Shown here piece by piece: positions 5,186 to 39,934 of a DNA stretch of 64,000 bases (position 1 is its first letter; each line of letters starts with the position of its first letter). The stretch lies in the NCBI GenBank assembly GCA_964594155.1, contig CAZQLH010000001.1, forward strand, positions 1,448-65,447, in the 5' to 3' direction. Below the pieces are notes generated by a model. That model saw only the letters and a list, made by a program, of their open reading frames with translations. It was not told the DNA's origin and did not search any database. Source of the DNA: an uncultured Candidatus Saccharibacteria bacterium (GTDB taxonomy: Bacteria > Patescibacteriota > Minisyncoccia > Portnoybacterales > UBA2143). A program made the translations under genes and the position numbers.

Positions 5186-5207
5186 GTCTGTGTTTGTGTT
5201 TTATAAT

Positions 5208-5241
5208 AGAGAGTAGAGATATTTCTACTCTCTTTATTTTT
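5208..5241 (+). terminator. intrinsic terminator-like hairpin after rSAM gene
   Basis: agagagtagag-atatttc-tactctct followed by a T-run. Confidence 0.45.
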
Positions 5242-5847: not shown

Positions 5848-5987
5848 AGGAATGAAAAGTTATTAAAGTAAAATTATCAATATTTTATTGTCAATCATTA
5901 CTTTACAAATAATCATTTAAAACATCGCTTTAATCAAGCGATTTTTGTTTATTTTCGTTCCTGTGGATAATTTTTGTCGGGAAAAAC

Positions 5988-6017
5988 TTGACAAAGGTTT
6001 ATAAAATAGCATATAAT
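5988..6017 (+). promoter_or_regulatory. near-consensus sigma-70 promoter (TTGACA-18-TATAAT)
   Basis: ttgacaaaggtttataaaatagcatataat read directly from sequence. Confidence 0.5.
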
Positions 6018-6061
6018 CATAATATAAAGTTGTCTTTGAAATCATAATTAAGTTTAAAAAT

Positions 6062-6160
6062 ATGGACAACAAAATTATTTTAGCCATTATCATAATAGCA
6101 GTGCCAGTATCATTAACTTTGATAATCTGGTTAATTGGCAAGTATTACAGTAAAGAATAA
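6062..6160 (+). CDS. small hydrophobic peptide (32 aa, single TM) downstream of consensus promoter
   Basis: MDNKIILAIIIIAVPVSLTLIIWLIGKYYSKE. No clear SD; speculative. Confidence 0.3.
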   Translation: MDNKIILAIIIIAVPVSLTLIIWLIGKYYSKE

Positions 6161-6288
6161 AAAGTTATTGAAAGCTAACAAATCAAATCAAAAAGATTAA
6201 GATTTAATCTCCTTGATTCGGTTTGTTAAATAGAGAACCGAGTGGTTCTTTGAAAATATAATACTTGGAGAAAAAAGGGGGTGATGAT

Positions 6289-7320
6289 ATGTTACTGCAT
6301 CCTGGAACTGGGATGGAAAGCCTGAATGATTATAAAGTTCGGGTTGGCAATGGCGGAGTTATAATTACAACTCTTGGAGCAAAGGAATTTAACGGAGAAT
6401 ATAATAAAAGGAATTGGTTGTATGTGCTATTTATGCGACTGGTCAGTATCTGGGCAGCATTGACAAACTTCACTCAAGCTCTTTTTATTAAGGTGTTCAA
6501 AAAAAGGAAAAGTTCTCTTGGGAAAATTCTCTGGGAGATGGGAAGAGACCCAGAACACATTTCTAGTTTTTTTGGCGATCGATTTAGCAGGATTAACCAC
6601 CAGGCTGTAGTTGGAGCTGCAAGTTGGAAATCTCTTGATATTGTTTACAATTATCATGAGAAGATTAAGCCACAGCTTAATGGCGGTGTTGAAGGTTGGT
6701 TAACAAATCATTGGATCGGAAAACTTGAAAACCGTCAGGCTATTGCTAATCGATTGAAAATTATTATTAATCTTTTAACAAAGGCCTTTGCAGAATTTGC
6801 TAATGAGCCGGAAATTAGAATAATTTCACTGGCTTCTGGTTCAGCCCAGGCAGTTATAGAGGCAATGTTAAAGCGTCCTCATTTTAATATTAAAGCAGTT
6901 TTAATTGATATTGACAGAACTGCTTTAGCAGCTGCAAAAGCTTACGCTGAAAAAAATGGGTTAGGAGATAGATTTACCTTTATCAAGGGCACAACTAGAG
7001 TTTTGGAAAAAGTTTGTCAGGAATTTCAACCTCATATTATTGAGATGGTTGGATTTCTTGATTACAGGCCTGATGATAAGGCAATTAAATTAATCAATAA
7101 GATTAAAGACTGCCTGTCTGATAAAGGAATTTTTCTAACCTGCAACATTAACTACAATCGGGAGAAAATCTTTCTTGATTGGGTTATGTTATGGCCCATG
7201 ATTTATAGAAGCGAGGAACAGTTTACAAAATTGCTTCTCAATGGAGGTTTTTTTCCTCAAAATGTTGACATATTTTATGAACCGTTTCAGATTCATGGAA
7301 TTGGAGTATGTCAAAAATAA
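6289..7320 (+). CDS. SAM-dependent methyltransferase-like protein
   Basis: Rossmann-like IISLASGSAQAVIEA..LIDIDRTALAAAKAYAEKNGLGDRFTFIKG. ATG 6289 has a GGGGGTGATGAT RBS, which is preferred over the TTG at 6265. Confidence 0.5.
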   Translation: MLLHPGTGMESLNDYKVRVGNGGVIITTLGAKEFNGEYNKRNWLYVLFMRLVSIWAALTNFTQALFIKVFKKRKSSLGKILWEMGRDPEHISSFFGDRFSRINHQAVVGAASWKSLDIVYNYHEKIKPQLNGGVEGWLTNHWIGKLENRQAIANRLKIIINLLTKAFAEFANEPEIRIISLASGSAQAVIEAMLKRPHFNIKAVLIDIDRTALAAAKAYAEKNGLGDRFTFIKGTTRVLEKVCQEFQPHIIEMVGFLDYRPDDKAIKLINKIKDCLSDKGIFLTCNINYNREKIFLDWVMLWPMIYRSEEQFTKLLLNGGFFPQNVDIFYEPFQIHGIGVCQK

Positions 7321-10581: not shown

Positions 10582-11235
10582 ATGAATAAGAAAACATATA
10601 TTTTAGGAGTTATTGCTATAATATTCTTAATAGGAATTGTTTGGTACGCTGATCAAAATAAACAGCCAACAGATAATCAAACAGCTTCAGTTTTAGAAGC
10701 ATCTGATCAAGAACAATCTACAGAATCAATTAAATTGGAATTATCAGAAGAGCTTTTTATAGGCAATCCAGAAGCTCCAGTAACAATAATAGAGTATGCC
10801 AGTCATTTTTGCGGATTCTGCGTTGATTTTCATTTAGATACGCTTCCTTTGCTTGTTGATAGGTACGTTAAAACAAGCAAGGTAAAAGTGGTTTTTCGTT
10901 TGCTTTCTCCTCCAGAATTAAGCATAGCTGTTTTGTGCGCTAATGAACAAGGAGATTTTCAAGAATTCAACACCTTTCTTTACGAAAATATCCAGGATAT
11001 TAAATCACTTGACGATTTGAAAAAAACAGCTAATATTTTAGAGTTAAACCAAGATGATTTTGATCAATGTATTGATTCAGGAAAGTACCAAGAAAAAGCA
11101 GTTAATTGGTTTGATCAGGCAACCAGCGCTGGAGTTGAAGGCACGCCAACCTTTTTTATAAACAATCAAGAAGTTGTTGGCAATCAGCCAGTAGCTATAT
11201 TTGAAGAGATTATTGAGCAAGAGCTTGCTAAATAG
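10582..11235 (+). CDS. DsbA-family thiol:disulfide oxidoreductase (membrane-anchored)
   Basis: N-terminal TM; CGFC (CxxC) active site in a thioredoxin fold. Confidence 0.75.
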   Translation: MNKKTYILGVIAIIFLIGIVWYADQNKQPTDNQTASVLEASDQEQSTESIKLELSEELFIGNPEAPVTIIEYASHFCGFCVDFHLDTLPLLVDRYVKTSKVKVVFRLLSPPELSIAVLCANEQGDFQEFNTFLYENIQDIKSLDDLKKTANILELNQDDFDQCIDSGKYQEKAVNWFDQATSAGVEGTPTFFINNQEVVGNQPVAIFEEIIEQELAK

Positions 11236-11321
11236 TTTTTTTGTTTGATCCCAGTTCTTAAAAAAGTTTATTTTGAAGGACTGGGATTTTTCTATTCTTA
11301 ATTTTATGTTAATATATATCT

Positions 11322-12245
11322 ATGGCTTTGATTATTGAAAAGAAACAAATAAAAGAGTGGTTAATAGAATTAAAGAAAGATTTTAAAGTTGTTAATGTTA
11401 AGAATTCTATTCTGCCGCCCAAGAAATATTTTTTTCCTCCTCAGGAAGATATTTTTGTTTTTGATAAAAAAACAAAAAATCTTGATACTGTAGATTACAA
11501 GAAACAGTTAGTGATTTTTGGCTTAAGCTTGAATAAATTAGAAGGCATTAAGCAATTAGATGAAATAATGAGCAAGCCCCAGCCAGATTTTTTTTACTGG
11601 CAAAGAAGAGAACAGTCAGTTTTAATTGGCTTAACTGATAATTCAGTTGAAGTAACTCCAGCTGGCGACCTTATTTTAGAAAAAATTAATCAAAAGCAAT
11701 ATCAAGCATTGGTTTTAACTGATAAGGGGAAGAAATTAGCTCAAAACAAGTTTTTTAAAGAAAATAAAAATCCAGAGATTAAAAAATATCCTCAAGAAGA
11801 AAATCCAGCTAAAAAAATGCTTTTAGATTCAGAATTATTAGCTGAAGCAGTAGAATGGTCTTGGCAAGTAAATCATAAGATTTGGGATGAGTTGGCTGAA
11901 AAATGCTTAGGTTGCGGTATTTGCACATATGTTTGTCCTCTTTGCCATTGTTTTTCCATAAAAGACAGGGTTAGCTTAGATGATAAGAAGTGCGTTCGCT
12001 GCCGGCAATGGGATGCTTGCACTTTGCCAAGCTTTGCTAAAATTGCTGGCGGGCATAATTTTCATAAAACCATTAAAGAGCGATATTATAATTGGTTTTA
12101 TCATAAATTTGTGCGTGCATATAAGGAATATGGCAAGCCGCAATGCATAGCTTGCGGCAATTGCAAAGAATATTGCCCAGCTAAGATTAAAATAGGAGAA
12201 GTTTTAAAAGAAATAGTTAAGGATTATAAAAAGAAAAAAGAATAA
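11322..12245 (+). CDS. hydB: [NiFe]-hydrogenase group 3b-like beta subunit (4Fe-4S ferredoxin-domain protein)
   Basis: Two ferredoxin-type Cys clusters (CLGCGICTYVCP, CIACGNCKEYCP). First gene of a four-gene hydrogenase operon. Confidence 0.65.
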   Translation: MALIIEKKQIKEWLIELKKDFKVVNVKNSILPPKKYFFPPQEDIFVFDKKTKNLDTVDYKKQLVIFGLSLNKLEGIKQLDEIMSKPQPDFFYWQRREQSVLIGLTDNSVEVTPAGDLILEKINQKQYQALVLTDKGKKLAQNKFFKENKNPEIKKYPQEENPAKKMLLDSELLAEAVEWSWQVNHKIWDELAEKCLGCGICTYVCPLCHCFSIKDRVSLDDKKCVRCRQWDACTLPSFAKIAGGHNFHKTIKERYYNWFYHKFVRAYKEYGKPQCIACGNCKEYCPAKIKIGEVLKEIVKDYKKKKE

Positions 12246-12260
12246 ATTTATTAAACTTAT

Positions 12261-12323
12261 ATTCTAAAATTTATGAGCGCTTTACCCTAAAGGGCTTTGA
12301 CGCGTCTCAGAAATTTCAGAACA
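12261..12323. repeat. structured intergenic repeat, copy 1 (A/T inverted arms flanking GC-rich hairpin core)
   Basis: ATTCTAAAATTT..GCGCTTTACCCTAAAGGGCTTTGACGCG..AAATTTCAGAAC. Near-identical copy 3 below. Confidence 0.7.
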
Positions 12324-12357
12324 CTCGTTTTTATTAATATAAATTTTATTATTAGTT

Positions 12358-13185
12358 ATGAAAAATTTATACAAACCATTTAAAGTTAAAATTGATAAAA
12401 TAGAAAAGCATTCTTCTAATGTTAATCTTTTTAGATTAAAAAAAGAAAAAGGCGATTTTTTAAAAAACGACCAGGGATTATTATTTAATCCAGGCCAGTT
12501 TGTTTTGCCTGGCATTTTTGGCTATGGAGAAGCTCCTTTTGGCCCTGCTTCATCGCCTTATCAAGATTCATATATTGACATCTTAGTTAGAAGAGTTGGA
12601 GTTTTAACTGAGGCCTTGCATAAATTAAAGAAAGGGGATGAAATATTTATGCGCGGTCCTTATGGAAATGGCTTTCCTTTGGATTTTATAAAAGGCCATG
12701 ATATTGTTATGGTGACTGGCGGCTGTGGAATTCCTCCGATCGCTTCTTTAATTGAATATGTTATTAAAAACAAAGATGACTTTGGCCGGGTTTATTTAAT
12801 CTATGGAGCTCGGACTCCGGGTGATTTGTTAATTAAAGACAGAATAAAAATATGGGAAAAAGAAATAAAAGTATTATTAACTGTTGATCAGCCAAGTAAG
12901 GATTGGAAGGGTTCAGTAGGCATGGTTTCAGAATTAATTAATGATATTAAGATTGATCCTAAAAATGCTGTTTCAGCTATGTGCGGGCCAGGGCCAATGA
13001 TGGATGCTTTGGAAAAAATCTTAAGACCCTTGGGGGTTTCTGACAGAAGGATTTTTGTTAATATGGAAAGAAAAATGCAGTGCGGGATAGGCAAGTGCCA
13101 GCATTGCACAACTGGAGATAAATATGTATGCCAAGACGGTCCAGTATTTAATTTTGATGAAATTGATAAAAACTGGGATAAATAG
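12358..13185 (+). CDS. hydG: hydrogenase gamma subunit, FAD/NAD(P)-binding oxidoreductase with C-terminal 2Fe-2S
   Basis: Ferredoxin-NADP reductase-like fold (GGCGIPP); C-terminal CGIGKCQHC..C cluster. Confidence 0.7.
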   Translation: MKNLYKPFKVKIDKIEKHSSNVNLFRLKKEKGDFLKNDQGLLFNPGQFVLPGIFGYGEAPFGPASSPYQDSYIDILVRRVGVLTEALHKLKKGDEIFMRGPYGNGFPLDFIKGHDIVMVTGGCGIPPIASLIEYVIKNKDDFGRVYLIYGARTPGDLLIKDRIKIWEKEIKVLLTVDQPSKDWKGSVGMVSELINDIKIDPKNAVSAMCGPGPMMDALEKILRPLGVSDRRIFVNMERKMQCGIGKCQHCTTGDKYVCQDGPVFNFDEIDKNWDK

Positions 13186-13228
13186 GAAATATTCCGGAAA
13201 TCAAATTTTTAAAATCATTTGTTTTTTT

Positions 13229-13296
13229 TCGCGCATTGAAATTTCTTCGCGCTTTACCTTAAAGGGCTCCGACGCGTCTCAGAAATTTCAAAGCAC
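13229..13296. repeat. structured intergenic repeat, copy 2
   Basis: CATTGAAATTTC..GCGCTTTACCTTAAAGGGCTCCGACGCG..GAAATTTCAAAG; arms form an inverted repeat. Confidence 0.7.
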
Positions 13297-13314
13297 TCAA
13301 TAAAAATAAGTACT

Positions 13315-14064
13315 ATGATTAAACCAAAAGTTGCTATCTATGACTTTACTGATTGTGAAGGATGTGAAGTAGAGATTATTTCTCTTAGAGAAAAGCTTTT
13401 AATATTGGAAAGCAGATTAGATATTGTTGATTGGCGATTAGGCCAGGATAGAAAAGAATCTGGCCCTTTTGATATCACTATTATTGAAGGAACTCCAATA
13501 ACTCAGCATGAAATTGATTTACTTAAGAAATTAAGAAAAGAATCAGAAGTTTTAATTGCTTTGGGCGCTTGCGCTGCTTTGGGCGGTATTCCAGCGATTG
13601 TGGATAAAAAAGAGCGGGCTAAATGGTATAAGAAGATTTATCCTTCGACAAGCTCAGGACAAGCGTATAAGCCAAGGGGAATTGACGCTTTGCCTTTATC
13701 TGCTTATGTTCAAGTTGATTTTTTAATTCATGGCTGTCCAGTCAATGGCAAAGAAGTAGTTAGAATTATTGAAGACTTGTTAGCTGGCAAAGTTCCAAAG
13801 TATCAAGGCTATTCAGTTTGTTTTGAATGCAAACAGGAAAATAATCCTTGTCGGCTATCGGATAGCCGACCTTGCTTGGGTCCGATTACTCAAGGCGGGT
13901 GCCAAGCTATTTGTGTTTCTGGCGGTTCTGCTTGTTATGGCTGTTTTGGCTTGCGCGAAGAACCAGAAATTAAAAATTTATTAAAGATTCTTAATAAGAT
14001 TACAGATAAAAAAGAAATTGAAAGATATTTTACAATGTTTTTGAGTAGAGTAAACAAGAAATAA
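13315..14064 (+). CDS. hydD: [NiFe]-hydrogenase small (delta) subunit
   Basis: NuoB/hydrogenase small-subunit-like Cys pattern (DCEGCE, GACA, HGCP; C-terminal CxxC..C). Confidence 0.75.
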   Translation: MIKPKVAIYDFTDCEGCEVEIISLREKLLILESRLDIVDWRLGQDRKESGPFDITIIEGTPITQHEIDLLKKLRKESEVLIALGACAALGGIPAIVDKKERAKWYKKIYPSTSSGQAYKPRGIDALPLSAYVQVDFLIHGCPVNGKEVVRIIEDLLAGKVPKYQGYSVCFECKQENNPCRLSDSRPCLGPITQGGCQAICVSGGSACYGCFGLREEPEIKNLLKILNKITDKKEIERYFTMFLSRVNKK

Positions 14065-14082
14065 AACAAATAAAAATTTCAT

Positions 14083-14146
14083 ATTCTAAATTTTCTTCGC
14101 GCTTTACCCTAAAGGGCTTTGACGCGTCTCAGAAATTTCAGAATAT
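14083..14146. repeat. structured intergenic repeat, copy 3
   Basis: ATTCTAAATTTT..GCGCTTTACCCTAAAGGGCTTTGACGCG..AAATTTCAGAATA. The core is identical to copy 1. Confidence 0.7.
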
Positions 14147-14161
14147 TCATTTTTTTATACA

Positions 14162-15385
14162 ATGAACAATTTTATTACTAAAATAGAAGGGCATGGGAGT
14201 TTAACTATTGATTGGAAGAAAAATTCCATTGAATTGAATATTCATGAAGGCGAGCGGCTTTTTGAGGGGATGCTGGTTAATCGGACAGCTGAAGAAATGC
14301 ATTGGATTACGCCTCGTATTTGCGGGGTTTGTCCCACAGCACATAATTTAGCTTCTTTAACTGCTTTAGAAGATTCTTTGGATATTAAACCTAATCAAAC
14401 AACTGTTTTATTGCGTGATTTAATGCAGAGCGGGCAAATGATTCAAAGCCATGCTTTGCATCTTTTCTTTTTATCTTTGCCTGATTATTTAGGAATTGAC
14501 CGGGGAACAGAATTAGCTCAAAAGAACCCAGAAGCGTTTAAGAATGCTTTAGCTCTTAAAGAAGTTTCTGATTTGATTGTTCAGGTTGTTGGGGGCCGGA
14601 TTGTTCATCCAACCAAAACAACTATTGGCGGTTTTCATAAAATCCCAAGTATTTTAGCTTTAAAGAAATTGCTTAAGAAATTAGAAAAATCAGAATTGGC
14701 TGCTAAGAATACAATTGAATTGGCAGCTAATATTGAATTTCCAGAATTAAGTGTTGATTTGCAATTAGTTGCTTTGGATAATGATTCAGTAATAGCTGTT
14801 TCTTCAAAGAATATTAAAGGAAGAAAAGAATCATTAATTAAGAATTACAAGCAGGATATTGAAGAAGAAATCAGGGATTATTCAACAGCTAAGTTTGGCA
14901 AGTATAAGGGGGAAGAAATGATGGTGGGTTCTTTGGCTCGTTTAGCTGTTTATGGAAATTATGATAAGAAATATCAAGTAGATTTTGCCAATCCTTTTCA
15001 TAATAATTTGGCCCAGGCAATTGAAATAGGGATTTACCATCAGAAAGCGCAGGAAATTATTAAAAAATTATTAAATATAGAAATAGATAAAAAAGTAATT
15101 CAACCAAGCAAAAACCATTCTTTAAGAGGTGTTGGCGCTATTGAAGCTCCAAGAGGCGGGCTTTATCATGAAGTTCATTTAGCCCCTTCGACAAGCTCAG
15201 GGTTTAATAATCTTATTACTGAAGCTAATATTATTACTCCTACAGTTCAGAATTTAACTTCTATTGAAAAAAGCAGTCAAGCTTTGCTAGAACAAACAAA
15301 AAACCGTTCTAAAGAAGAAATAGAACGATTATTGGTGATGTTAGTTCGGGCTTATGATCCTTGTATTACTTGCTCGGTTCACTAG
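14162..15385 (+). CDS. hydA: [NiFe]-hydrogenase large (alpha) subunit
   Basis: N-terminal RICGVCP (RxCGxC) and C-terminal DPCITCSVH (DPCxxCxxH) Ni-Fe ligand motifs. The protein ends at the His, with no C-terminal extension. Confidence 0.9.
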   Translation: MNNFITKIEGHGSLTIDWKKNSIELNIHEGERLFEGMLVNRTAEEMHWITPRICGVCPTAHNLASLTALEDSLDIKPNQTTVLLRDLMQSGQMIQSHALHLFFLSLPDYLGIDRGTELAQKNPEAFKNALALKEVSDLIVQVVGGRIVHPTKTTIGGFHKIPSILALKKLLKKLEKSELAAKNTIELAANIEFPELSVDLQLVALDNDSVIAVSSKNIKGRKESLIKNYKQDIEEEIRDYSTAKFGKYKGEEMMVGSLARLAVYGNYDKKYQVDFANPFHNNLAQAIEIGIYHQKAQEIIKKLLNIEIDKKVIQPSKNHSLRGVGAIEAPRGGLYHEVHLAPSTSSGFNNLITEANIITPTVQNLTSIEKSSQALLEQTKNRSKEEIERLLVMLVRAYDPCITCSVH

Positions 15386-15596
15386 ATTGATGATGATTAT
15401 TAATCATTTTTAAAATCTTTTTAGCTTCAGCTTTAGGAACTTTATTAATAGCTAATTCATCGTGAATTAGCAAATAGTCGCCAATTTTAACATTTTTAAG
15501 CAAGTTTAAGCTAACCCGGTGTTGGTGATCGCCAGATTCTACCGTAGCCCAATCTTTTTCAATTTTAATTACTTTGCTGGGAATTACTAAACACAT
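15366..15596 (-). CDS. hypC: hydrogenase maturation factor HypC/HupF
   Basis: Starts MCLVIP (the HypC MC[LI][AGV][IV]P signature) and is 76 aa. Its 3' end overlaps hydA convergently by 20 bp. Confidence 0.8.
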   Translation of the reverse strand: MCLVIPSKVIKIEKDWATVESGDHQHRVSLNLLKNVKIGDYLLIHDELAINKVPKAEAKKILKMINNHHQSSEPSK

Positions 15597-15616
15597 AAGT
15601 TAATTGTATTACAATT

Positions 15617-16510
15617 ATGAATAAAAACAAAGGATTATTATTAGTTTTATCAACCGCTGTTATTTCCGGCATATCTGTTTTTATTAACAAGTTCGGAGTT
15701 ATTGTTGTTAACCCATATATTTTTACTGGTTTGAAAAATATTATTGTTGCTCTATTAATAGTAACTTGGCTTTTAATGATGAAGGATTGGAAGATTTTGA
15801 AAAAGCTTCAGAAAAATCAATGGTTAATGCTTTTAGGAATCGGATTGATTGGCGGCTCTGTCCCATTTTTACTTTTTTTTAAAGGACTTTCTATAACTAG
15901 CGGAGTTCAGGCGGCTTTTATTCATAAAACAATGTTTATCTATATCATTGTTTTAGCAGCTGTTTTTTTGAAAGAAAAGATCAGCAGGAATTTTTTAATA
16001 GCTGGCCTTGGTTTGTTTTTAGCTAATATTCTTTTATTAAAATCAGTTCAAAGTAATTTTACATGGGGCGATCTTCTTATTTTATCAGCTACTCTTTTTT
16101 GGGCTTTGGAAAATGTTTTAAGCAAATATTTGCTTAGAGATTTATCTGCTCGGATAGTTATTTGGGGGAGAATGTTTTTTGGCTCTTTTTTTATTATTCT
16201 ATTTTGGCTGATTACTGGCCAAGCGCATTTAATTAATTCATTGAATTTAGAGCAGATAGGATGGGTAATGATTACATCTGTTTTCCTTTTTGGCTATGTA
16301 GCTGCTTGGTATCATGGATTGAAATATATTAAGGTTTCTGAAGCAGCTGTTGTTTTGTTATTAGCCAGTCCAATAACAACGTTTTTATCTTTAATATTCT
16401 TAAATCAAGCTTTGTTAATTAATCAGTTTTTTGGTATAATATTAGCTCTATTGTCAATCCTAATTATTTATTCTTCTTATGCTCAAAACAAATCAATTAG
16501 CGCAGTTTGA
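15617..16510 (+). CDS. EamA/DMT-family transporter
   Basis: 10 predicted TM helices in two EamA-like halves. Confidence 0.7.
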   Translation: MNKNKGLLLVLSTAVISGISVFINKFGVIVVNPYIFTGLKNIIVALLIVTWLLMMKDWKILKKLQKNQWLMLLGIGLIGGSVPFLLFFKGLSITSGVQAAFIHKTMFIYIIVLAAVFLKEKISRNFLIAGLGLFLANILLLKSVQSNFTWGDLLILSATLFWALENVLSKYLLRDLSARIVIWGRMFFGSFFIILFWLITGQAHLINSLNLEQIGWVMITSVFLFGYVAAWYHGLKYIKVSEAAVVLLLASPITTFLSLIFLNQALLINQFFGIILALLSILIIYSSYAQNKSISAV

Positions 16511-17240
16511 TTCCAAAGGAATCATTAGATGCGCGCGATATGGCTTTATGCCTAATCATTTGAGTTTTTGCGGGCCAGATAAGAATAAAGACCTTTTTCA
16601 TTATTGCCATAGCCAGAAAACAGATCAGGGATTAAAACAGATTTTAGAAGATTTTCAAACGCTTTATCCTTATTTAAAATTCATTGCTCAATATAATAGG
16701 ATTAAGGATCCTTTTAGAGAAGAAGTGGTAGAGGCCTATTGGATTGGCAATTCTCTTTTAGAAAATATTACTAAATCGCAGCTATATAGCCATTTAGTAG
16801 ATAATTTTCAAGTTAAAAGGAAATTAAGCAAGCCATTGGTAAGAAGATTGAATAAAAAGATTGTTTTAGGAGCTAAAGCTCATCATAATTTTCATGTTTT
16901 GAGCGTTTGGAAGCAAGCTGATAAAATTGATTCATTGCAAATTTTATCCAGTATGGATCTTTGCCGAATTAGCTGGGGCAAGGTTAAGAAAGTTAATCAG
17001 GCAGATTTAAAAGTGGAATATCAGCCATTGGTTTTAAAGAACAATAAATTGAGTTTAGGCAAGCCAATTTTAGAGAAAATAAATTACAGGATTGAAGATA
17101 AGGGATTTATTAAAAAACCAAAAAAAGGAAATTGGATTTCAATGCATTGGGGATTTGCCTGTGAAGTGTTAAATGACTGGCAAGTTGCTAATTTGAAAAA
17201 ATATACTTTGGAAAATATTGATTTAGCTAATTTGAGTTAA
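16479..17240 (+). CDS. hypothetical protein
   Basis: ORF only, no recognised motif. Start uncertain (alternative ATG ~16548). Confidence 0.4.
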   Translation: MLKTNQLAQFDSKGIIRCARYGFMPNHLSFCGPDKNKDLFHYCHSQKTDQGLKQILEDFQTLYPYLKFIAQYNRIKDPFREEVVEAYWIGNSLLENITKSQLYSHLVDNFQVKRKLSKPLVRRLNKKIVLGAKAHHNFHVLSVWKQADKIDSLQILSSMDLCRISWGKVKKVNQADLKVEYQPLVLKNNKLSLGKPILEKINYRIEDKGFIKKPKKGNWISMHWGFACEVLNDWQVANLKKYTLENIDLANLS

Positions 17241-17246
17241 AAAAAT

Positions 17247-18161
17247 ATGTATGATTTAATAATTATTGGAGGAGGGCCAGCTGCAGTTAGCGCTGGCATT
17301 TACGCAGCTAGGAAAAAACTTAAAACTATTTTAATTACTAAAGATTGGGGCGGCCAAGTGGCTTTAGCGCCTGAAATAGAGAATTACCCTGGATTTAATT
17401 CAATTACTGGAGCAGAATTGGTCAAGAAATTTGTTGAACATTTAAAAAAGAATGAATTAGAGATAAAAGAAGGAGTTGAAATCAAAGATATTAAAGTAAA
17501 TAATAATTTAGTTGAAGTAAAAGCTAATAGTGATTCTTATCAAGCTAAGGCCGCTGTTGTAACAACAGGGCGAAATCCTCGCAAGTTAGGATTGCCTAAT
17601 GAAGCAAAATTTCTTGGCAAGGGAATTAGTTATTGTTCAACTTGCGACGCGCCTCTTTTTAAAGATAAAGAAGTAGCTGTTATTGGCGGAGGAAATATGG
17701 GATTAGGCACAGCTTTAGATCTTGTTACTTATGCTTCTAAGATATATATTTTAGAATATGATTCTAAAATAAGGGCTGATCAATATTTTCAAGAAAAAGT
17801 TAAAAAAAATGATAAAATAGAAGTTATTACTAGCGCTAGAATTGCTGAAATTAAAGGAGATCAATTTGTCAGCAGCTTATCTTATAGTAATGGAACCGGA
17901 GGCAAGAATAAGGAATTGTTAGTTCAAGGCATTTTTGTAGCTATTGGTTCAGATGCTAGTTCATTTTTAGTTAAAAATGTGGTAGAATTAAATAAAGAGG
18001 GTGAAATAAAGATTGACTCTAGAAACAGAACTTCTCAGCCAAATATTTTTGCCGCTGGAGATGTAACTGATATTTCTCATAAGCAAATTGTTATTGCCGC
18101 TGGAGAGGGAGCTAAAGCAGCTTTAAATGCTTATGATTATTTGCAAAGTTTAAATCAATAA
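17247..18161 (+). CDS. trxB: thioredoxin-disulfide reductase
   Basis: FAD motif GGGPAA; redox-active CSTCD (cf. CATCD); NADPH motif GGGNMG. Confidence 0.85.
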   Translation: MYDLIIIGGGPAAVSAGIYAARKKLKTILITKDWGGQVALAPEIENYPGFNSITGAELVKKFVEHLKKNELEIKEGVEIKDIKVNNNLVEVKANSDSYQAKAAVVTTGRNPRKLGLPNEAKFLGKGISYCSTCDAPLFKDKEVAVIGGGNMGLGTALDLVTYASKIYILEYDSKIRADQYFQEKVKKNDKIEVITSARIAEIKGDQFVSSLSYSNGTGGKNKELLVQGIFVAIGSDASSFLVKNVVELNKEGEIKIDSRNRTSQPNIFAAGDVTDISHKQIVIAAGEGAKAALNAYDYLQSLNQ

Positions 18162-18192
18162 AGATATCAAGGTACGGCCTATAACTAATAAT

Positions 18193-18262
18193 ATTCTAAA
18201 ATTTTTAAGCGCTTTATCCCGCTGAAGCGGGAGCCCTACACGCATTAAAAATTTCAGAATAT
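18193..18262. repeat. structured intergenic repeat, copy 4 (variant core)
   Basis: ATTCTAAAATTT..GCGCTTTATCCCGCTGAAGCGGGAGCC..AAATTTCAGAATATT. Same arms as copies 1-3 with a different GC hairpin (CCCGC-TGAA-GCGGG). Confidence 0.65.
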
Positions 18263-18295
18263 TATTAATAGGCGCGGTCTTAGATAACAAATATT

Positions 18296-18550
18296 ATGAC
18301 AGATAAAAAACAGCCAAGTATCCGTGTTTATAGCACGTTAACTTGTCCATATTGCGTTACTCTTAAAGCTTTTTTAGATGAAAAAGGCTTTAAGTACGAA
18401 GATATTAATGTGGGTGAAGATCAAAAAGCAGCTGATGAAATGATAAAAAAATCAGGCCAAATGGGGGTTCCAGTAGTGGATATAGACGACCAAATTATTA
18501 TTGGATTTGACAAAGAAAAAATTAGCCAATTACTTAATATTAAGGAATAA
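18296..18550 (+). CDS. glutaredoxin-like protein (NrdH/Grx family)
   Basis: 84 aa with a CPYC active site. Confidence 0.8.
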   Translation: MTDKKQPSIRVYSTLTCPYCVTLKAFLDEKGFKYEDINVGEDQKAADEMIKKSGQMGVPVVDIDDQIIIGFDKEKISQLLNIKE

Positions 18551-18555
18551 AATAT

Positions 18556-19524
18556 ATGATTAAAATAGCTATTAATGGATTTGGCCGGATCGGAAGGTCT
18601 GCTTTTCGGCGGATTTTAGAAAGTCATCCTGAATTAGAAGTGGCGGCTATTAATGATTTGGCTGATAAAGAAACTTTAGCTCATCTTTTAAAATATGATT
18701 CTGTTTATGGAATATATGATCAGCCAATCAAAGCTAAAATTTTAGCTGAAAAAGATCCAGCCCAGCTTCCTTGGAAAGAATTAGAAGTAGATATTGTTTT
18801 AGAATGTACTGGTATTTTTGCTAATCTTGAAGGAGCAGGAAGGCATTTATCAGCTAGGGCAAAAAAAGTTATTATCTCAGCTCCTTGCAAGGGATCTGAT
18901 GTTTCAACCTATGTTTTGGGCGGCAATGAAGATAAATATGATTCTAATAAGGATGATATTGTTTCTATGGGTTCTTGCACAACTAATTGTTATGCGCCAA
19001 TAACCAAAATCCTTCACGAAAATTTTGAAGTGGAAAGAGGATTTATGGTGACTGCCCATGCAGCAACTAATAATCAGAAGATTTTAGATTCTCCGCATAA
19101 GGATTTAAGGCGAGCTAGGTCTGTTTTTAATAATATTATTCCTACAACAAGCGGGTCTGACAAAGCAACTACTGAAGTAATCCCTGAATTAAAAGGGAAA
19201 TTGCATACTATGGCTATGCGAATACCAATACAAGTTGGTTCAGTGATTTATGCAATTTACAACCTTAAGAAAAAGCCATCATCAAAAGAAGTTAATAATG
19301 TAATAAAAGAAGCATCGCAAAGAGAATACAAAAACATTCTTAAATACGAGACCAATCAAATAGTTTCTTCTGATATTGTTGGTTCTAAATATTCAGCAAT
19401 CTTTGACTCATTATTAACCGAAAACAGCGATGATTTGGTAAAAATAGTTGCTTGGTATGATAATGAATATGGATATGCTTGCAGATTAGCAGAATTTGCA
19501 GAATTTATCGGCAAAAAATTATGA
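18556..19524 (+). CDS. gap: glyceraldehyde-3-phosphate dehydrogenase
   Basis: NGFGRIGR NAD motif; SCTTNC active-site Cys. Confidence 0.9.
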   Translation: MIKIAINGFGRIGRSAFRRILESHPELEVAAINDLADKETLAHLLKYDSVYGIYDQPIKAKILAEKDPAQLPWKELEVDIVLECTGIFANLEGAGRHLSARAKKVIISAPCKGSDVSTYVLGGNEDKYDSNKDDIVSMGSCTTNCYAPITKILHENFEVERGFMVTAHAATNNQKILDSPHKDLRRARSVFNNIIPTTSGSDKATTEVIPELKGKLHTMAMRIPIQVGSVIYAIYNLKKKPSSKEVNNVIKEASQREYKNILKYETNQIVSSDIVGSKYSAIFDSLLTENSDDLVKIVAWYDNEYGYACRLAEFAEFIGKKL

Positions 19525-19970
19525 TTTACTTAGGCGCTGATCATGCTGGATTTCATTTAAAGGAAGAAATCAAGAAATATCTTGAAGAATTAGGATATAA
19601 ATATGAGGATTTAGGCAACCAAGAAATGGATCCTCAAGACGACTATCCTGATTTTGCTTTGAAAGTGGCAAATAAAGCGGTTGAAACAAAAGAAAAAGGA
19701 ATTTTAGTTTGTTCAACTGGATTAGGAATGTGTTTAGCGGCTAATAAGGTGAAAGGAGCTCGAGGGGTTGTTGTTTGGGATGAGTTTACAGCTATTCAGT
19801 CAAGAGAGCATAATAATGCTAATATTCTTTGTTTGGCTGGCAAGGTATTGGATTTAGAAACAGCTAAGAAAATTGTTCGCGTTTGGATGGAAACAGAGTT
19901 TAGCGAAGAAGAAAGGCACGTGCGAAGGTTAGAGAAGATTAAAGCTATAGAGATCAAGGAACGTCCTTAA
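19521..19970 (+). CDS. rpiB: ribose-5-phosphate isomerase B
   Basis: MIYLGADHAGF N-terminus typical of RpiB/LacAB. The ATG overlaps the gap stop codon (ATGA). Confidence 0.85.
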   Translation: MIYLGADHAGFHLKEEIKKYLEELGYKYEDLGNQEMDPQDDYPDFALKVANKAVETKEKGILVCSTGLGMCLAANKVKGARGVVVWDEFTAIQSREHNNANILCLAGKVLDLETAKKIVRVWMETEFSEEERHVRRLEKIKAIEIKERP

Positions 19971-19981
19971 GGACGTTCCTT

Positions 19982-20623
19982 ATGATAAATATGATCCAAA
20001 TTATCCCAGCTATTATTTCTCAAGATTTTGAGGAATTGCAGAAGAAAATTAAAAAGGTAGAATCCTATGTTGATTTGGTTCAATTAGATGTAATGGATGG
20101 AAAGTTTGTTGATAACCTAACTTGGAACCAGCCAACTGATTTAAGGAATTTAAAGACCAGTTTAAAATTAGAAGTCCATTTAATGGTTCAAAATCCAGAG
20201 AATATTATTGATGATTGGATTAAATCAGGCATTCAAAGAATTATTTTCCATTATGAATCAACTAAAAATCCAGAAGGGATTATTAAAAGAATAAAGCAAG
20301 CTGGTTTGCAGGTTGGCTTGGCAATTAATCCAGAAACTTCAGTAAAGTCAATAGATGCTTTTATTAATCAACTTGATTTAGTTTTAATTATGACAGTTCA
20401 TCCAGGAAAAGGAGGTCAAGAGTTTTTAGAGGAAACCTTGTGGAAAATTAAGGAATTGCGAGAGGAATATAAAGATGTTAATATAGGGGTAGATGGAGGA
20501 ATAAATTTAGAAACTGCGCCAAAAGTTATTCAAGTTGGCGCCAATATCTTATTCATTGGTTCAGCTATATTCAAAAGCGAAAATATTGAAGAAGCAATTA
20601 AAAAGTTAAAAAATGGATATTAA
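19982..20623 (+). CDS. rpe: ribulose-phosphate 3-epimerase
   Basis: DVMDGKFV and HxMV motifs of Rpe. Confidence 0.85.
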   Translation: MINMIQIIPAIISQDFEELQKKIKKVESYVDLVQLDVMDGKFVDNLTWNQPTDLRNLKTSLKLEVHLMVQNPENIIDDWIKSGIQRIIFHYESTKNPEGIIKRIKQAGLQVGLAINPETSVKSIDAFINQLDLVLIMTVHPGKGGQEFLEETLWKIKELREEYKDVNIGVDGGINLETAPKVIQVGANILFIGSAIFKSENIEEAIKKLKNGY

Positions 20624-21461
20624 AGAATTAGAAAAAAAAGCTAATACAATCAGAAAAGACATTATTGAAATGTTAATGGAAGCTAAGTCCGGCCACTCAG
20701 CCGGTCCTTTAGGTATGGCTGATGTTTTTACTGCTTTGTATTTTGGCAATGTTGTTAAATATGACTATAAGAAACCTGATTGGGAAGGAAGAGATTATGT
20801 AATTCTTTCTAATGCCCATATTTGTCCGGTTTTGTATGCAACAATGGCTCATGCTGAATATTTCCCAGTTGATGAATTGAAAACTTTGCGCAAATTAGGC
20901 AGTCGCTTACAAGGCCATCCACACCGTTTAGAATTGCCAGGAATTGAAACATCAGGCGGTTCTTTAGGACAGGGTTTGTCAATTGCTTGCGGCATGGCTT
21001 ATTCTTTTCATAAATTAGACAAAAAAGATAATTGGGTTTGGGCTTTGACCAGCGATGGCGAACATGATGAAGGCCAGATGTGGGAGGCAGCTATGTTTGC
21101 CGGCAAAAACAAGCTTTTTAATCTTACTCAGATTATGGATAGGAATAATATCCAAATTGACGGCTATACAGAAGATGTTATGCCCTTAGAGCCGTTAAAA
21201 GAAAAATATGAAGCGTTTAACTGGCATGTTTTGGAAGTAGATGGGCATAATATTGAAGAAATTATTAATGCTTGCCATAAATCTAAGAAAATTTTTGAAA
21301 AGCCAGTTTTAATTATTGCTCATACTATTCCAGGCAAGGGCGTTGATTTTATGGAATGGAAATATTCTTGGCATGGAAAGGCGCCTTGTAAAGAAGAAGC
21401 TGATAAAGCTCTTAATTGCTTAAGAACATTAGATGGAAAGATTAAAGGCGAGCATGAGTAA
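20613..21461 (+). CDS. transketolase, N-terminal (TPP-binding) subunit of split enzyme
   Basis: GHSAGPLGMAD..GSLGQGLS TPP-binding region; 282 aa. Confidence 0.85.
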   Translation: MDIKELEKKANTIRKDIIEMLMEAKSGHSAGPLGMADVFTALYFGNVVKYDYKKPDWEGRDYVILSNAHICPVLYATMAHAEYFPVDELKTLRKLGSRLQGHPHRLELPGIETSGGSLGQGLSIACGMAYSFHKLDKKDNWVWALTSDGEHDEGQMWEAAMFAGKNKLFNLTQIMDRNNIQIDGYTEDVMPLEPLKEKYEAFNWHVLEVDGHNIEEIINACHKSKKIFEKPVLIIAHTIPGKGVDFMEWKYSWHGKAPCKEEADKALNCLRTLDGKIKGEHE

Positions 21462-21473
21462 TAAAACGAAAAT

Positions 21474-22448
21474 ATGAATTTAGTTAATAATTTATACAAA
21501 AAAGAAAAATTAGAACAAAAGCCCACTCGTGATGGATATGGCCAGGGCTTGGTTGAATTAGGCAGGAAAAACCCCAATATTGTTGCTTTGGGCGCTGATT
21601 TAACTGGTTCTACTCGCTGTAATTGGTTTAAAGATGAGTTTCCAGACAGGTTTATTCAAGTGGGCATTGCTGAACAAAATATGGTTGGCATTGCCGTTGG
21701 CTTGGCTTTGATTGGCAAAGTTCCTTTTGCTTCTACTTATTCTGTTTTTTGTCCTGGACGCAATTGGGATCAAATTCGCATTAGCATTGCCTATAATAAA
21801 GCTAATGTTAAACTTACTGGGGCTCATGCTGGAATTTCAGTGGGGCCAGACGGCGCTACTCATCAGGGCTTGGAAGATATTGCCATTACTCGATGTTTGC
21901 CTAATATGACTGTTTTAGCGCCTTGCGATATGATTGAAACAGAAAAGGCAACCATGGCGGCTGGCGCAATGATTGGGCCGGTTTATTTAAGATTTGCCCG
22001 TGAGTCAACTCCTGTTTTTACTACTGAAAGAACGTCTTTTAGAATTGGCCAAGCTGAGGTTTTTCGCAAAGGCAAAGACGCGTCTATAATTGCCTGCGGC
22101 CCCATTGTTTATGAGGCCTTATTAGCAGCTGAAGAATTATCTAAACAAGGAATTGATGTTCGGGTGATTAATAATCATACTATTAAGCCAATTGATGAAG
22201 AGGAAATTATTAAAGCAGCTGAGCAGACAGGAGCGATTGTTACTGGCGAAGACCATCAGGTAATGGGCGGCTTAGGCTCTGCTGTGGCAGAGGTTTTAGC
22301 TAAGAACCATCCTGTGCCTATAGAAATGATTGGAGTCCAGAATCGTTTTGGGGAATCCGGCCAGCCAGAGGAATTAATGAAAGAATTTGACTTAAAAGCG
22401 AAAAATATTAAAGAAGCAGTTAAGAAAGTTATTAAGAGGAAAATATAA
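21474..22448 (+). CDS. transketolase, C-terminal (pyrimidine-binding) subunit
   Basis: Homology pattern of the Tkt C-terminal half; adjacent to the N-terminal subunit gene. Confidence 0.85.
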   Translation: MNLVNNLYKKEKLEQKPTRDGYGQGLVELGRKNPNIVALGADLTGSTRCNWFKDEFPDRFIQVGIAEQNMVGIAVGLALIGKVPFASTYSVFCPGRNWDQIRISIAYNKANVKLTGAHAGISVGPDGATHQGLEDIAITRCLPNMTVLAPCDMIETEKATMAAGAMIGPVYLRFARESTPVFTTERTSFRIGQAEVFRKGKDASIIACGPIVYEALLAAEELSKQGIDVRVINNHTIKPIDEEEIIKAAEQTGAIVTGEDHQVMGGLGSAVAEVLAKNHPVPIEMIGVQNRFGESGQPEELMKEFDLKAKNIKEAVKKVIKRKI

Positions 22449-22466
22449 TAGTTTGTAAAACTTTGT

Positions 22467-22599
22467 ATTCTGAATAATCAGAAAACAAAATTTTTTAAAT
22501 CGCTTATTCCTGCCCTCGCTTTGCTCGGGCGCGCGCCCACACCTGCGACTTAAAAAATTTGTTTTCTTTATATAAAAATTAGAAATTTCAGAATACTCG
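22467..22599. repeat. structured intergenic repeat, copy 5 (extended/diverged)
   Basis: GTATTCTGAA..palindromic GC core CGGGCGCGCGCCC..AGAAATTTCAGAATACTCG. The terminal 10-nt arms are perfect inverted repeats. Confidence 0.55.
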
Positions 22600-22618
22600 T
22601 TTTAAAATTTTATATAAT

Positions 22619-23605
22619 ATGTACGATGTTATAGTTCTTGGCTCAGCTACTCAGGATGTATTTATGAGCAGTCCTGATTTTAAAGTAGTTGAAGATGAGA
22701 AATTAATTACAAAAAAAGGATTATGCGTTCCTTTGGGTTCTAAATTAGGAATGGAAAACGTTACTTTTGCTATGGGCGGCTGCGGCACAAACGCAGCTGT
22801 TACTTTTGCAAATCAAGGCTTAAAAACCGCTTATTTAGGATTAGTTGGCAAGGATTGCGCTGGGGATATGGTTAAAAGCGAATTAAAGAAAAACAATGTT
22901 TCAACTGATTTAATAATTGATTCAGATAAAGACCAAACAGCTTTTTCAGTTATTCTTTCTGTTCCAAATACTGGGCGAAGCATTTTAAAAAAATTAGGAG
23001 CTTGCCATAATATGACTGATTCTGATTTTAATTATGATAAAATTAAAGCAAAATGGATTTACGCTGGTTCATTGTCAGGCAAAGCATATAAAGTTCTTGA
23101 TAAATTATTTGATTTTGCAGTTGAAAACAAAATTAAAATAGCAGTTAGCCCTGTTGGCCAAAGCCAATTAGGCGAGGGATTGGAAAGAACTAAGGCGTTG
23201 CTTCATAAAGTTGATATTTTAATTGTGAATCAGGAAGAAGCAGCTCTTTTAACAGGGGTTGATTATAGCGATGAAGAAGAGATTTTTAATAAATTAGAAA
23301 AGTTAGCTCCAAGAATTAAAGTTATGACCAAAGGGCCAAAAGGCGTAAGAGTGACTGACCGGGAATATAGATATTCAGCTGGCATTCCAGAATCTGGATT
23401 AGTTGACAGAACTGGAGCTGGCGATGCTTTTGCCTCGGCATTTTTATCTGGATATATTGAAAAACAAGATATTTCTTACGCTATTCAGCTTGCTACGGCA
23501 AATTCAACATCAGTATTGCAGAAAATGGGAGCTATAAACGGTCTTTTGAAAAAAGGCGAATGGGGTAAATGGGAAAAAGTAGAAGTTTTAAAGGAAAAGG
23601 CATGA
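22619..23605 (+). CDS. PfkB-family carbohydrate/nucleoside kinase (ribokinase-like)
   Basis: N-terminal GGxGxN and C-terminal TGAGDAF motifs. Confidence 0.8.
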   Translation: MYDVIVLGSATQDVFMSSPDFKVVEDEKLITKKGLCVPLGSKLGMENVTFAMGGCGTNAAVTFANQGLKTAYLGLVGKDCAGDMVKSELKKNNVSTDLIIDSDKDQTAFSVILSVPNTGRSILKKLGACHNMTDSDFNYDKIKAKWIYAGSLSGKAYKVLDKLFDFAVENKIKIAVSPVGQSQLGEGLERTKALLHKVDILIVNQEEAALLTGVDYSDEEEIFNKLEKLAPRIKVMTKGPKGVRVTDREYRYSAGIPESGLVDRTGAGDAFASAFLSGYIEKQDISYAIQLATANSTSVLQKMGAINGLLKKGEWGKWEKVEVLKEKA

Positions 23606-39617: not shown

Positions 39618-39926
39618 ATGATAAAAAACCAAAACAAAATTCACGGATCTATAAATAGCTCTGGCAAAAAAAGCGGTAAATTGCGATACAATAGACTGAG
39701 AATATTAAAAAAACATAAAGGTAAGTTTAAAAAGATTGACAAGATAACTGTTAAGTATCGTGGGGATTCTTTTATAGCACAAATAAACAACAGATTGTTT
39801 AGTGTTTATGGAGAGATTGACGATGATAAAATAGAAGAATGGTTTGGAAATAAATATATAAAAATTAATATTGATATAACTCATTTGTATAATTTAAATA
39901 ATATAGAATTAAAGGAAAAGAAATAA
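39618..39926 (+). CDS. hypothetical protein (102 aa)
   Basis: AAAAGGGGA RBS then ATG 39618. The stop sits at the point where homology to the second YbjQ copy begins. Confidence 0.45.
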   Translation: MIKNQNKIHGSINSSGKKSGKLRYNRLRILKKHKGKFKKIDKITVKYRGDSFIAQINNRLFSVYGEIDDDKIEEWFGNKYIKINIDITHLYNLNNIELKEKK

Positions 39927-39934
39927 AACAAACT

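Follow-up and report, generated by a model that had tools for sequence, protein, structure and literature searches.

Palindromic repeats in the hyd operon and at nearby gene junctions of a Patescibacteria genome probably belong to a family of non-autonomous insertion elements

In REP/BIME and REPIN-RAYT systems, palindromes lie at the gene junctions of operons and the hairpin is recognized on one strand, while mycobacterial interspersed repetitive units (MIRUs) sit in intercistronic operon spacers and are oriented one way relative to transcription. This work describes family A, a repeat family of Patescibacteria that is alike in these respects. REPs, however, measure 20 to 40 nt, lie outside genes, number in the hundreds, and go with a RAYT gene, whereas family-A elements are longer, also intragenic, and few in number, with no RAYT seen in their flanks. 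MIRUs, in turn, are repeated directly in tandem and carry small overlapping ORFs, as opposed to forming hairpins with a conserved core. Like MITEs, family-A elements are small (70 to 90 nt), dispersed (92 unique copies), and without coding capacity of their own; classical MITEs have conserved terminal inverted repeats, target-site duplications, and a cognate IS, whereas the termini of family A vary, the flanks revealed no IS partner, and no duplication was definable at filled and empty sites. Correia/NEMIS and ERIC elements are likewise small, noncoding inverted-repeat elements that are cotranscribed with operons and are in some cases intragenic, and they can form RNase III substrates (PMC10969869). 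The closest likeness is to Rickettsia palindromic elements (RPEs), repeats of roughly 150 bp (Ogata et al. 2000, as cited in PMC10969869). RPEs are short palindromes of a reduced genome that occur between genes as well as in frame within unrelated housekeeping ORFs, to which they add a peptide, and they lack a known transposase (PMC10969869); family A shares each of these features, and its host proteins are otherwise intact. The RPEs belong to another phylum and have no known sequence relationship to family A; the two families are compared here by description. Family A differs in its length (about 70 to 90 nt versus roughly 150 bp; PMC10969869), in the conservation of a 28-nt apical module above a stem that varies and covaries, and in the single orientation and frame that its copies keep within ORFs.

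The window analyzed here is the whole 64-kb stretch of DNA in which five such repeats had been noticed. A preliminary description made from its letters reported inverted A/T-rich arms around a GC-rich core, in a single orientation just upstream of five start codons, and this layout is present at all five places. The elements start 15 to 52 nt after the preceding stop codons and end 17 to 35 nt upstream of the ATG codons of hydG, hydD, hydA, grx, and pfkB (gene names around the elements are backed by Pfam), and on the sense strand they fold with −17 to −30 kcal/mol (z = −2.6 to −7.3). The grouping of all five into one family holds for copies 1 to 4 but not for copy 5, as gauged with R1, a covariance model trained on family-A copies from other genomes. 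When R1 was run on the 64-kb window, copies 1 to 4 were retrieved (E = 1e-18 to 1e-7) with no significant match besides them, while copy 5 reached at most 16.5 bits, below significance.

Three of the retrieved copies, all on the plus strand, occupy junctions of the hyd operon. Copy 1 (12252..12329; 76.2 bits, E = 1.6e-16) lies at the hydB-hydG junction, with arms at 12260-12272 and 12310-12323 and a core at 12277-12304 (GCGCTTTACCCTAAAGGGCTTTGACGCG) that carries a lineage-specific CC>TT change. Copy 2 (13224..13301; 83.7 bits, E = 1.9e-18) fills the hydG-hydD junction, and its core (13249-13276) has a single C>T that leaves a G.U pair in the apical hairpin. Copy 3 (14074..14151; 84.6 bits, E = 1.2e-18), between hydD and hydA, shares with copy 1 the derived CC>TT mutation in its core (14099-14126). 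A promoter arising from this mutation (TTGACG-17-AATATT) was rejected, as 9-of-12 matches occur at background (57 versus 47.5 ± 7.4). Copy 4 (18184..18267, plus strand; 41.5 bits, E = 1.1e-7) stands at the trxB-grx junction and has a class-2 core (18209-18243; GCGCTTTATCCCGCTGAAGCGGGAGCCCTACACGC) with a longer apical hairpin and a GCCCTAC loop variant that also appears in L014_520, L038_5077, and L152. The preliminary description had taken the cores to be variable. For copy 4 this was correct, since its core is one instance of a true and widespread class-2 variant (..GCCCTACACGC); the core of copy 5, on the other hand, belongs to a different palindrome, family B. The pattern search with short arm motifs that had been suggested as a check does not carry the family, as such motifs alone give 13 matches in the window against 10.3 expected, i.e., no enrichment. 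The case for the elements rests on the entire element.

Copy 5 (22464..22599, plus strand), at the tktC-pfkB junction, is a composite with family-A arm remnants and without a family-A core. Its 5′ remnant (22465-22474, plus strand) reads GTATTCTGAA, and its 3′ remnant (22581-22596, plus strand) reads ..TTCAGAATAC plus the flank CTCG. These outer arms match family-A arms, with flank ACTCGTTTT, and together with the 3′ flank they resemble those of copy 1 and of the elements at L041 and L063. Nested between them is a family-B palindromic element (22480..22567, minus strand), inverted relative to the copies in L011 and L040, where family B has more copies in both orientations; alignment to the L011 copy at 19044 scores 130 as the reverse complement and 74 in the forward direction. 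Copy 5 appears to be a decayed family-A copy whose arms enclose an inverted family-B palindrome.

Genomes and metagenomes together yielded the 92 unique family-A copies, in many Patescibacteria. A degenerate core pattern matched 55 stretches in species-representative genomes, ~47 of them in Patescibacteria lineages, with at most 7 per MAG; the exact 28-mer core matched 82 metagenome stretches and had 0 matches in viral contigs. Density is ~1 copy per 100 kb, with 4 copies in the 64-kb window. The preliminary description had offered a REP-like dispersed element as a fallback, which was essentially right in that this is a structured palindromic repeat dispersed over many related genomes. Membership in REP/REPIN-RAYT proper was rejected on the grounds that 26 of the 92 copies are intragenic, that density is low, and that no Y1 transposase appeared among the best 25 Pfam families of the flank census.

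The 28-nt core (GCGCTTTACCCTAAAGGGCTCCGACGCG) forms two short helices with an asymmetric internal loop and sits atop a 16- to 25-bp stem, the sequence of which differs among copies while complementarity is kept. Its apical module consists of a 3- to 4-bp GC helix, the asymmetric internal loop (UUUA / CUCCGA; class 2 has GCCCUA), and a short hairpin that varies. Inverted arms are found in every copy; their sequences differ and group into subfamilies that recur at nonorthologous sites of different genomes. The arms of copy 4, for instance, are nearly identical to those at L017, a site between serS and an ftsQ-like gene. The earlier impression of conserved arms around a variable core is thus reversed across the family, in which the core is conserved and the arms vary, with the qualification that core "invariance" stems partly from the search pattern and that unbiased samples give divergent cores. 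Folding and covariation, also proposed as a check, bore out the stem across copies from many genomes: 95.3% of cells pair on the reverse strand, and two-sided changes number 196 cells versus 55 in shuffles (0/500 shuffles reach 196). Divergent copies show compensatory changes in P2 and P3.

The two strands are not equivalent. In 89 of 92 copies, the more stable fold is that of the strand antisense to the host genes (mean of −36.0 kcal/mol versus −28.6 kcal/mol for the sense strand). On the sense strand, 77 A.C stand against 17 G.U (50 versus 12 with related arms collapsed), and A.C positions of the sense strand correspond to G.U on the reverse strand. A small antisense RNA gene transcribed opposite the host genes would produce such an asymmetry, which fits equally well a single-stranded DNA intermediate or selection that weakens the mRNA hairpin. 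Since the element comes without a conserved promoter or terminator, and since copies in coding regions would require antisense transcription of essential genes, we regard an antisense gene as the least probable of the explanations weighed here.

Intergenic copies lie between codirectional genes, 42 in gene orientation and 6 against, with the core a median of ~40 nt away from the stop codon as well as from the start codon, and their sites include core operons (rplJ-rplL, groES-groEL, and rpoB). This placement, along with strong stem covariation, a conserved internal loop, and the precedent of RNase III-cleaved Correia elements (PMC10969869), speaks for a host-beneficial cis-acting RNA in operon mRNAs, possibly an RNase III site, a 3′ exonuclease barrier, or a site for a conserved CPR RNA-binding protein that tunes the relative expression of neighboring cistrons. 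The preliminary description had likewise suggested a regulatory or processing RNA before start codons. We consider such a role unlikely. The same element is read in frame within unrelated housekeeping proteins, it is the antisense strand that folds better, there is no Rfam match, and no association with gene function was seen in 110 flanking ORFs (housekeeping genes). Close relatives also lack the element at the same junctions.

The gene order hydBGDA-hypC-eamA-DUF6390-trxB-grx-gap-rpiB-rpe-tktNC-pfkB is kept in four relatives (L008-L011), where the junctions are tight or overlapping: hydB and hydG overlap or abut in L008, L009, and L011, and the trxB-grx junction measures 0 to 5 nt or overlaps in all four. 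In the closest relatives, L068 and L069, whose HydD is 87 to 91% identical, the hydG-hydD and hydD-hydA junctions are both empty, the former because TAA-ATT-ATG stands there; hydD and hydA overlap in L067 and L069. Overall, the orthologous junctions in L008-L011 and L067-L069 are tight or overlapping or hold unrelated palindromes instead. Further copies exist in related genomes, but conservation at the same junctions does not. A cis-regulatory leader or riboswitch was rejected because the position upstream of orthologous genes is unconserved in these relatives, and because their junctions are tight or overlapping at the same places, the elements are lineage-specific insertions. What lies at these junctions is DNA that was inserted, not a conserved regulator, and an annotation of the window should not list the hyd-operon hairpins as a riboswitch-like regulator. 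RNase processing of hyd mRNA at the hairpins is possible as a side effect. Comparison of filled and empty sites for copies 2 and 3 reveals remodeled junctions without a clear target-site duplication; the C terminus of the window HydD is also remodeled relative to those of relatives, and a TA dinucleotide is found at the flanks of some copies and is missing from others.

The 26 intragenic copies are all in gene orientation, and copies flanked on both sides by 60 or more open codons all use the frame reading RFTLKGSDA (20/20). The hosts are DprA (×7), RNase HII (×6), Tgt (×3), UvrA (×3), WecG (×2), UvrC, IleRS, and RpoC, in all of which Pfam domains flank the insert on both sides. Alignments define the insert as a hydrophilic segment of 23 to 29 aa (..NSSRFTLKGSDAT..) that is not in homologues. 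For the RNase HII insert, an AlphaFold model places approximately residues 114 to 139 in a low-confidence coil after a helix at 97 to 113; because the model is mediocre (mean pLDDT of 65), it lends weak support to a predicted surface loop. A profile search with the peptide for host proteins retrieved only 4 short ORFs, all DprA N termini, and a search of a representative library gave a single chance match to an adhesin repeat.

Old copies can be followed in RNase HII, where ~100 of 120 homologues have an insert at the same site. One allele that looks "empty" and shares 93% identity with a filled allele retains 20 nt of the 5′ arm and is therefore a secondary deletion. Across six copies from RNase HII, identity is 100% in the core, 81% in the arms, and 62% at third codon positions of the host, a comparison biased by the retrieval of these copies via the core. 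The retained pairing and, often, exact core of such old orthologous copies hint at selection on the element itself.

DNA repair and recombination genes (DprA, RNase HII, UvrA, and UvrC) hold 18 of the 26 coding copies; as many copies are orthologous, this bias rests on ~10 independent sites. A bias to genome maintenance genes is also reported for the Neisseria DUS. Together with a core that is identical across many lineages, the gene bias of family A would suit a DNA-level signal, e.g., for uptake or recombination by the competence and repair machinery, recognized as a hairpin or cruciform. We judge this very improbable, as RNase HII orthologues sampled without bias show widely varying cores and the density is far too low. 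A DNA uptake sequence in the strict sense was rejected on the latter count: the window has 4 copies in its 64 kb and no MAG has more than 7 exact cores, compared with ~1 per kb for DUS/USS.

Other identities were set aside as well. In Rfam searches, only a tRNA exceeded the gathering threshold in the window, with no overlap with the elements at E ≤ 10, and eighteen other loci gave tRNAs only. An integron attC site does not fit, as conservation is apical rather than basal (R″/R′ boxes) and the flanks are syntenic core genes, not cassettes. Among terminator-like sites (GC-rich stem plus T-run) in 11000-23500, none coincides with an element. Copies in long ORF-poor stretches raised the idea of rRNA intervening sequences, which was rejected because no rRNA was found; these copies lie inside real genes. 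The window duplications D1 and D2, considered as ISs, are both duplicated ybjQ-like genes. Few loci were informative on orientation relative to replication (GC skew). Literature searches on the core sequence, the encoded peptide, and palindromic or MITE-type elements of CPR bacteria found no relevant match.

The best reading of family A is an RPE/MITE-like mobile palindrome. We put at roughly four in five (about 0.78) the probability that copies 1 to 4 are non-autonomous palindromic insertion elements of Patescibacteria and that copy 5 is one of them in decayed form, enclosing a nested second palindrome. Elements persist where harm is small, in the stop-start gaps of packed codirectional genes and in frame within housekeeping proteins. 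Their spread would require a trans-acting enzyme that recognizes a folded single strand by its conserved apical module, probably the strand complementary to the host mRNA, which pairs better via G.T/G.U wobbles; the palindromy of copies would then be kept by selection or self-templated correction. The best 25 Pfam families of the 110 flanking ORFs (~8 kb per locus) include no transposase or mobilizing gene. In L140 and L143, which have paired copies, only MscS and Fic genes lie between them.

Some observations count against mobility. Classical MITE architecture is reversed, with a conserved center and variable ends; intergenic orientation is biased and coding copies concentrate in repair and recombination genes; and old orthologous copies retain pairing and often the exact core. 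Because the apical module is conserved, the stem covaries in old orthologues, and wobbles occur only on the antisense strand, the element may be more than junk. It could be a single-stranded nucleic acid structure read by a putative enzyme widespread in CPR bacteria, either a structure-guided mobile element preferring dprA/uvrA/uvrC/rnhB, much as inteins prefer conserved genome maintenance genes, or an element co-opted by the host. We hold this version as tentative, at a fraction of the confidence given to mobile palindromes of the RPE/MITE type.

If the elements are such mobile palindromes, three insertions in the hyd operon would have broken ancestral stop/start overlaps and put stable hairpins into the polycistronic mRNA. 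These hairpins may affect how translation is coupled or provide sites of the RNase III type, but such effects would be incidental and not their purpose. More generally, the elements add 23 to 29 aa to conserved proteins and disrupt operon stop/start overlaps. The repeats may also produce assembly chimeras; at L109, an arm resembling that of the uvrC copy is fused to an RNase HII copy's downstream part. Housekeeping proteins interrupted in frame by palindromic "selfish DNA" have so far counted largely as peculiar to Rickettsia. That Patescibacteria, which also have small, reduced genomes, carry an analogous family suggests that such elements recur where genomes are tightly packed. With thousands of CPR genomes and a recognizable core, profiling of the element against gene content could reveal the mobilizing enzyme.

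All five structured intergenic repeats that the preliminary description had placed upstream of hydG, hydD, hydA, grx, and pfkB, and had proposed to be a regulatory or structural RNA or a REP-like element, were found in the sequence. Their sense strands have fold energies of -17 to -37 kcal/mol (z-scores of -2.6 to -7.3), and an Rfam search returned no family match to the five. They lie within a region (11.3 to 23.6 kb) in which every gene except hypC is on the + strand: the genes of a group-3b-type [NiFe] hydrogenase (hydB, 11322-12245; hydG, 12358-13185; hydD, 13315-14064; and hydA, 14162-15385), followed by genes for an EamA transporter, a DUF6390 protein, thioredoxin reductase (17247-18161), glutaredoxin (18296-18550), GAPDH, RpiB, Rpe, a split transketolase (end, 22448), and a PfkB kinase (start, 22619). 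Homologues carry the names Patescibacteria, Parcubacteria, or Paceibacterota, and identical elements occur on the same contig in at least seven metagenome assemblies.

R1, a covariance model built from copies in other genomes, represents family A, a palindromic repeat with a conserved 28-nt core atop a variable complementary stem. In the window, R1 detects exactly four significant copies (c1, 12252-12329; c2, 13224-13301; c3, 14074-14151; and c4, 18184-18267) and rejects the fifth repeat (c5, 22464-22599), which is not a member with a variable core as had been proposed. Copy c5 is a composite: Its outer arms and 3' flank (..AGAAATTTCAGAATACTCGTTTT) match family-A arms, while its center (22480-22567) belongs to a second palindrome family, family B, nested in a decayed family-A copy. 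Family B, with a core of ..AGGYGTGGGCGYGC..CGAGCRAAGCGAG.. between arms GAAAACAAATTTTT and AAAATTTGTTTTC, also occupies this junction in one related locus, L011, and has copies elsewhere in L011 and in L040 (positions, ~19044 and 20108 [rc] in L011 and ~3450 in L040); it occurs in both orientations, and the window copy is inverted relative to that of L011. The cores of c1 and c3 share a lineage-specific CC>TT change that creates TTGACG; in c3 (14119-14147), this hexamer, 17 nt, and AATATT form a 9-of-12 sigma-70 promoter match 15 nt before the hydA ATG, although matches of this quality occur only at background frequency in the region.

The window elements are inserted DNA. Gene order is the same in four syntenic relatives (L008 to L011), in which the genes at the equivalent sites are tightly spaced or overlap, for example, at hydB/hydG/hydD, trxB/grx, and tktC/pfkB in L008. 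In the closest relatives found (L068 and L069; HydD 87 to 91% identical), the hydG-hydD junction reads TAA-ATT-ATG, compared to a 129-nt spacer in the window, and L069 has overlapping hydD and hydA genes, which a 97-nt spacer separates in the window. Elsewhere among the relatives, the same junctions hold unrelated palindromes, among them repeats of the GAGGTCCGACC and GGACTGTCCC types. Additional short perfect palindromes at gene junctions are GGAACGTCCTTAAGGACGTTCC between the rpiB stop and rpe start in the window (19948-19987), AAGGACTGTCCC..GGGACAGTCC repeats at gene junctions of L067 (7030-7090 and 7910-8000), and GAGGTCCGACCT repeats at those of L010 (8675-8776, 16152-16202, and 19084-19142). 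Given that several unrelated palindromic repeats have gathered at these sites, the operon junctions of these genomes seem to serve as landing sites for palindromic DNA in general. What looks like a second, tiny dispersed insertion lies within the hydrogenase genes themselves: An identical 17-mer, CCTTCGACAAGCTCAGG, encodes PSTSSG in frame in hydD (13642-13658) and hydA (15185-15201). In HydD, this stretch is a net 5-aa insertion missing from all homologues, including 89 to 91% identical relatives, and a 23-nt version, TCCTTCGACAAGCTCAGGACAAG, is present in an unrelated Paceibacterota genome (L032, ~5006, - strand).

Family A is dispersed across genomes, with arm subfamilies common to nonorthologous sites. 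A scan with the degenerate core GCGCTTTAYCYNNNNGGGNNNNGACGCG, using one genome per species, matched 55 stretches. About 47 of these are in Patescibacteria metagenome-assembled genomes (Nomura-, Nealson-, and Vogelbacteria, Paceibacterota, Minisyncoccales, and bins labeled Saccharibacteria), with at most 7 per genome; the remaining 8, from GC-rich genomes of other phyla, lack hairpin arms and differ at unconstrained positions, and look like chance matches. The exact 28-mer core was found in 82 metagenome stretches and in no viral contigs. In an alignment of 47 copies, the core is constant, an invariance partly produced by the search pattern (RNase HII homologues, discussed below, carry varied inserts), and the arms vary between copies yet stay complementary. 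The consensus fold has three helices, namely, P1 (at least 16 bp), P2 (GCGC/GCG), and P3 (CCC-UAAA-GGG), the last two separated by an asymmetric internal loop. Standard pairs make up 95.3% of cells on the reverse strand, changes on both sides account for 196 cells versus 55 ± 6 in shuffles, and pairing falls to 24 to 52% in shifted registers. This covariation shows that pairing is maintained; it is not proof of a functional RNA, as the same signal arises from a DNA palindrome. Applied to other loci, R1 retrieved six more, divergent copies. P3 is longer in two divergent copies (L039 and L055), P2 is altered on both sides but still paired in L023 and L152, and a class-2 loop (GCCCTAC versus CTCCGAC) recurs in c4, L014_520, L038_5077, and L152. 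No description of the family was found in Rfam or the searchable literature.

Between codirectional genes, 42 intergenic copies lie along the gene orientation versus 6 against it, and the core has a median distance of ~40 nt from the upstream stop and likewise from the downstream start. The two strands are also unequal. Sense-strand stems contain 77 A.C and 17 G.U mismatches (50 and 12 once related arms are collapsed). The A.C positions are G.U wobbles on the antisense strand, and the core itself has two positions of this kind. Folding favors the antisense strand in 89 of 92 copies (mean, -36.0 versus -28.6 kcal/mol). Mutation bias is unlikely to explain the asymmetry: The + strand has a positive GC skew, probably the signature of a C>T bias on that strand, and such a bias would predict the opposite pattern. 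Instead, it may be the antisense strand, as RNA or single-stranded DNA, that is folded and recognized, or the mRNA hairpin may be under selection for weaker pairing.

Family-A copies within open reading frames (ORFs) are translated in frame. Among the 92 unique copies, 26 lie within long ORFs, all in gene orientation, and the frame reading ..RFTLKGSDA.. is used by 20 of 20 copies flanked on both sides by 60 or more open codons. There is also a second open forward frame (ALYPKGLRR), the use of which was never seen; we infer that proteins can tolerate only the hydrophilic reading. The hosts are DprA (two sites), RNase HII, Tgt, UvrA (two sites), UvrC, a class I tRNA synthetase, RNA polymerase beta', WecG, and UPF0102. 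Pfam domains flank the insert on both sides, and alignments place 23 to 29 additional residues where homologues have none. In the Tgt of L043 (2053-3459), the family-A insert is closely preceded by another insertion, the 33-aa AEKFAQASWSGSSSSLIRGPENEETSLPLSANKK; this stretch, which the L052 protein (85% identical) lacks, is possibly an inserted element as well. In an ORF of L109 (300-1448), the 5' arm resembles that of the L062 uvrC copy, while the sequence from the 3' arm onward matches the L077 RNase HII copy, reflecting either true recombination between two copies or a metagenome assembly chimera at the repeat.

The RNase HII site was surveyed in 120 homologues that were 63 to 100% identical to the L022 protein and not picked by core. 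Roughly 100 carry an insert at the family-A position, with peptides grading from canonical SRFTLKGSDA through class-2 SRFTPEGPYTD to unrecognizable, and ~14 have none. One "empty" allele (P0132), 93% identical to a filled one, retains 20 nt of the 5' arm, so its empty state arose by secondary deletion. The RNase HII copy is thus old, drifted, and several times lost; family-A copies decay and are deleted. Across six RNase HII copies, identity is 100% in the core, 81% in the arms, and 62% at host third codon positions, which is suggestive, although choosing copies via the core biases the comparison. Two homologues (P0168 and P0201) contain an extra segment (..FTLKGSLPDNASxxQAGDT..) nested within the core peptide, suggesting that the element can itself receive mini-insertions. 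In L009, the RNase HII gene (4759-6687) contains an intein with a faint Intein_splicing match (642 aa versus ~280 aa); a single housekeeping gene therefore hosts differing selfish insertions in different lineages.

Housekeeping genes (including obg, groES/EL, serS, rplJ/L, recA, and rpoB) make up the 110 ORFs beside intergenic copies. Among the 25 most frequent families of these ORFs, none is transposase-like. Genes between paired copies are unrelated to one another. A ~650-nt duplication in the window (39901-40557 and 42069-42686; 99% and 87% identity), adjoining Fic-domain genes and a secreted SNase-like nuclease, is not a transposase: It carries a ybjQ-like gene followed by a small ORF.

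In all, family A fits a non-autonomous mobile palindrome, behaving like Rickettsia palindromic elements and intragenic MITEs (PMC10969869). A functional or co-opted role of any kind appears unlikely; what keeps it alive is that old copies still pair, that orientation is biased, and that genome-maintenance hosts are in excess. As a mobile palindrome, family A would be mobilized in trans, with the apical module recognized on a folded single strand. For the hyd operon, its arrival would have meant the loss of stop/start coupling and the gain of new mRNA hairpins.
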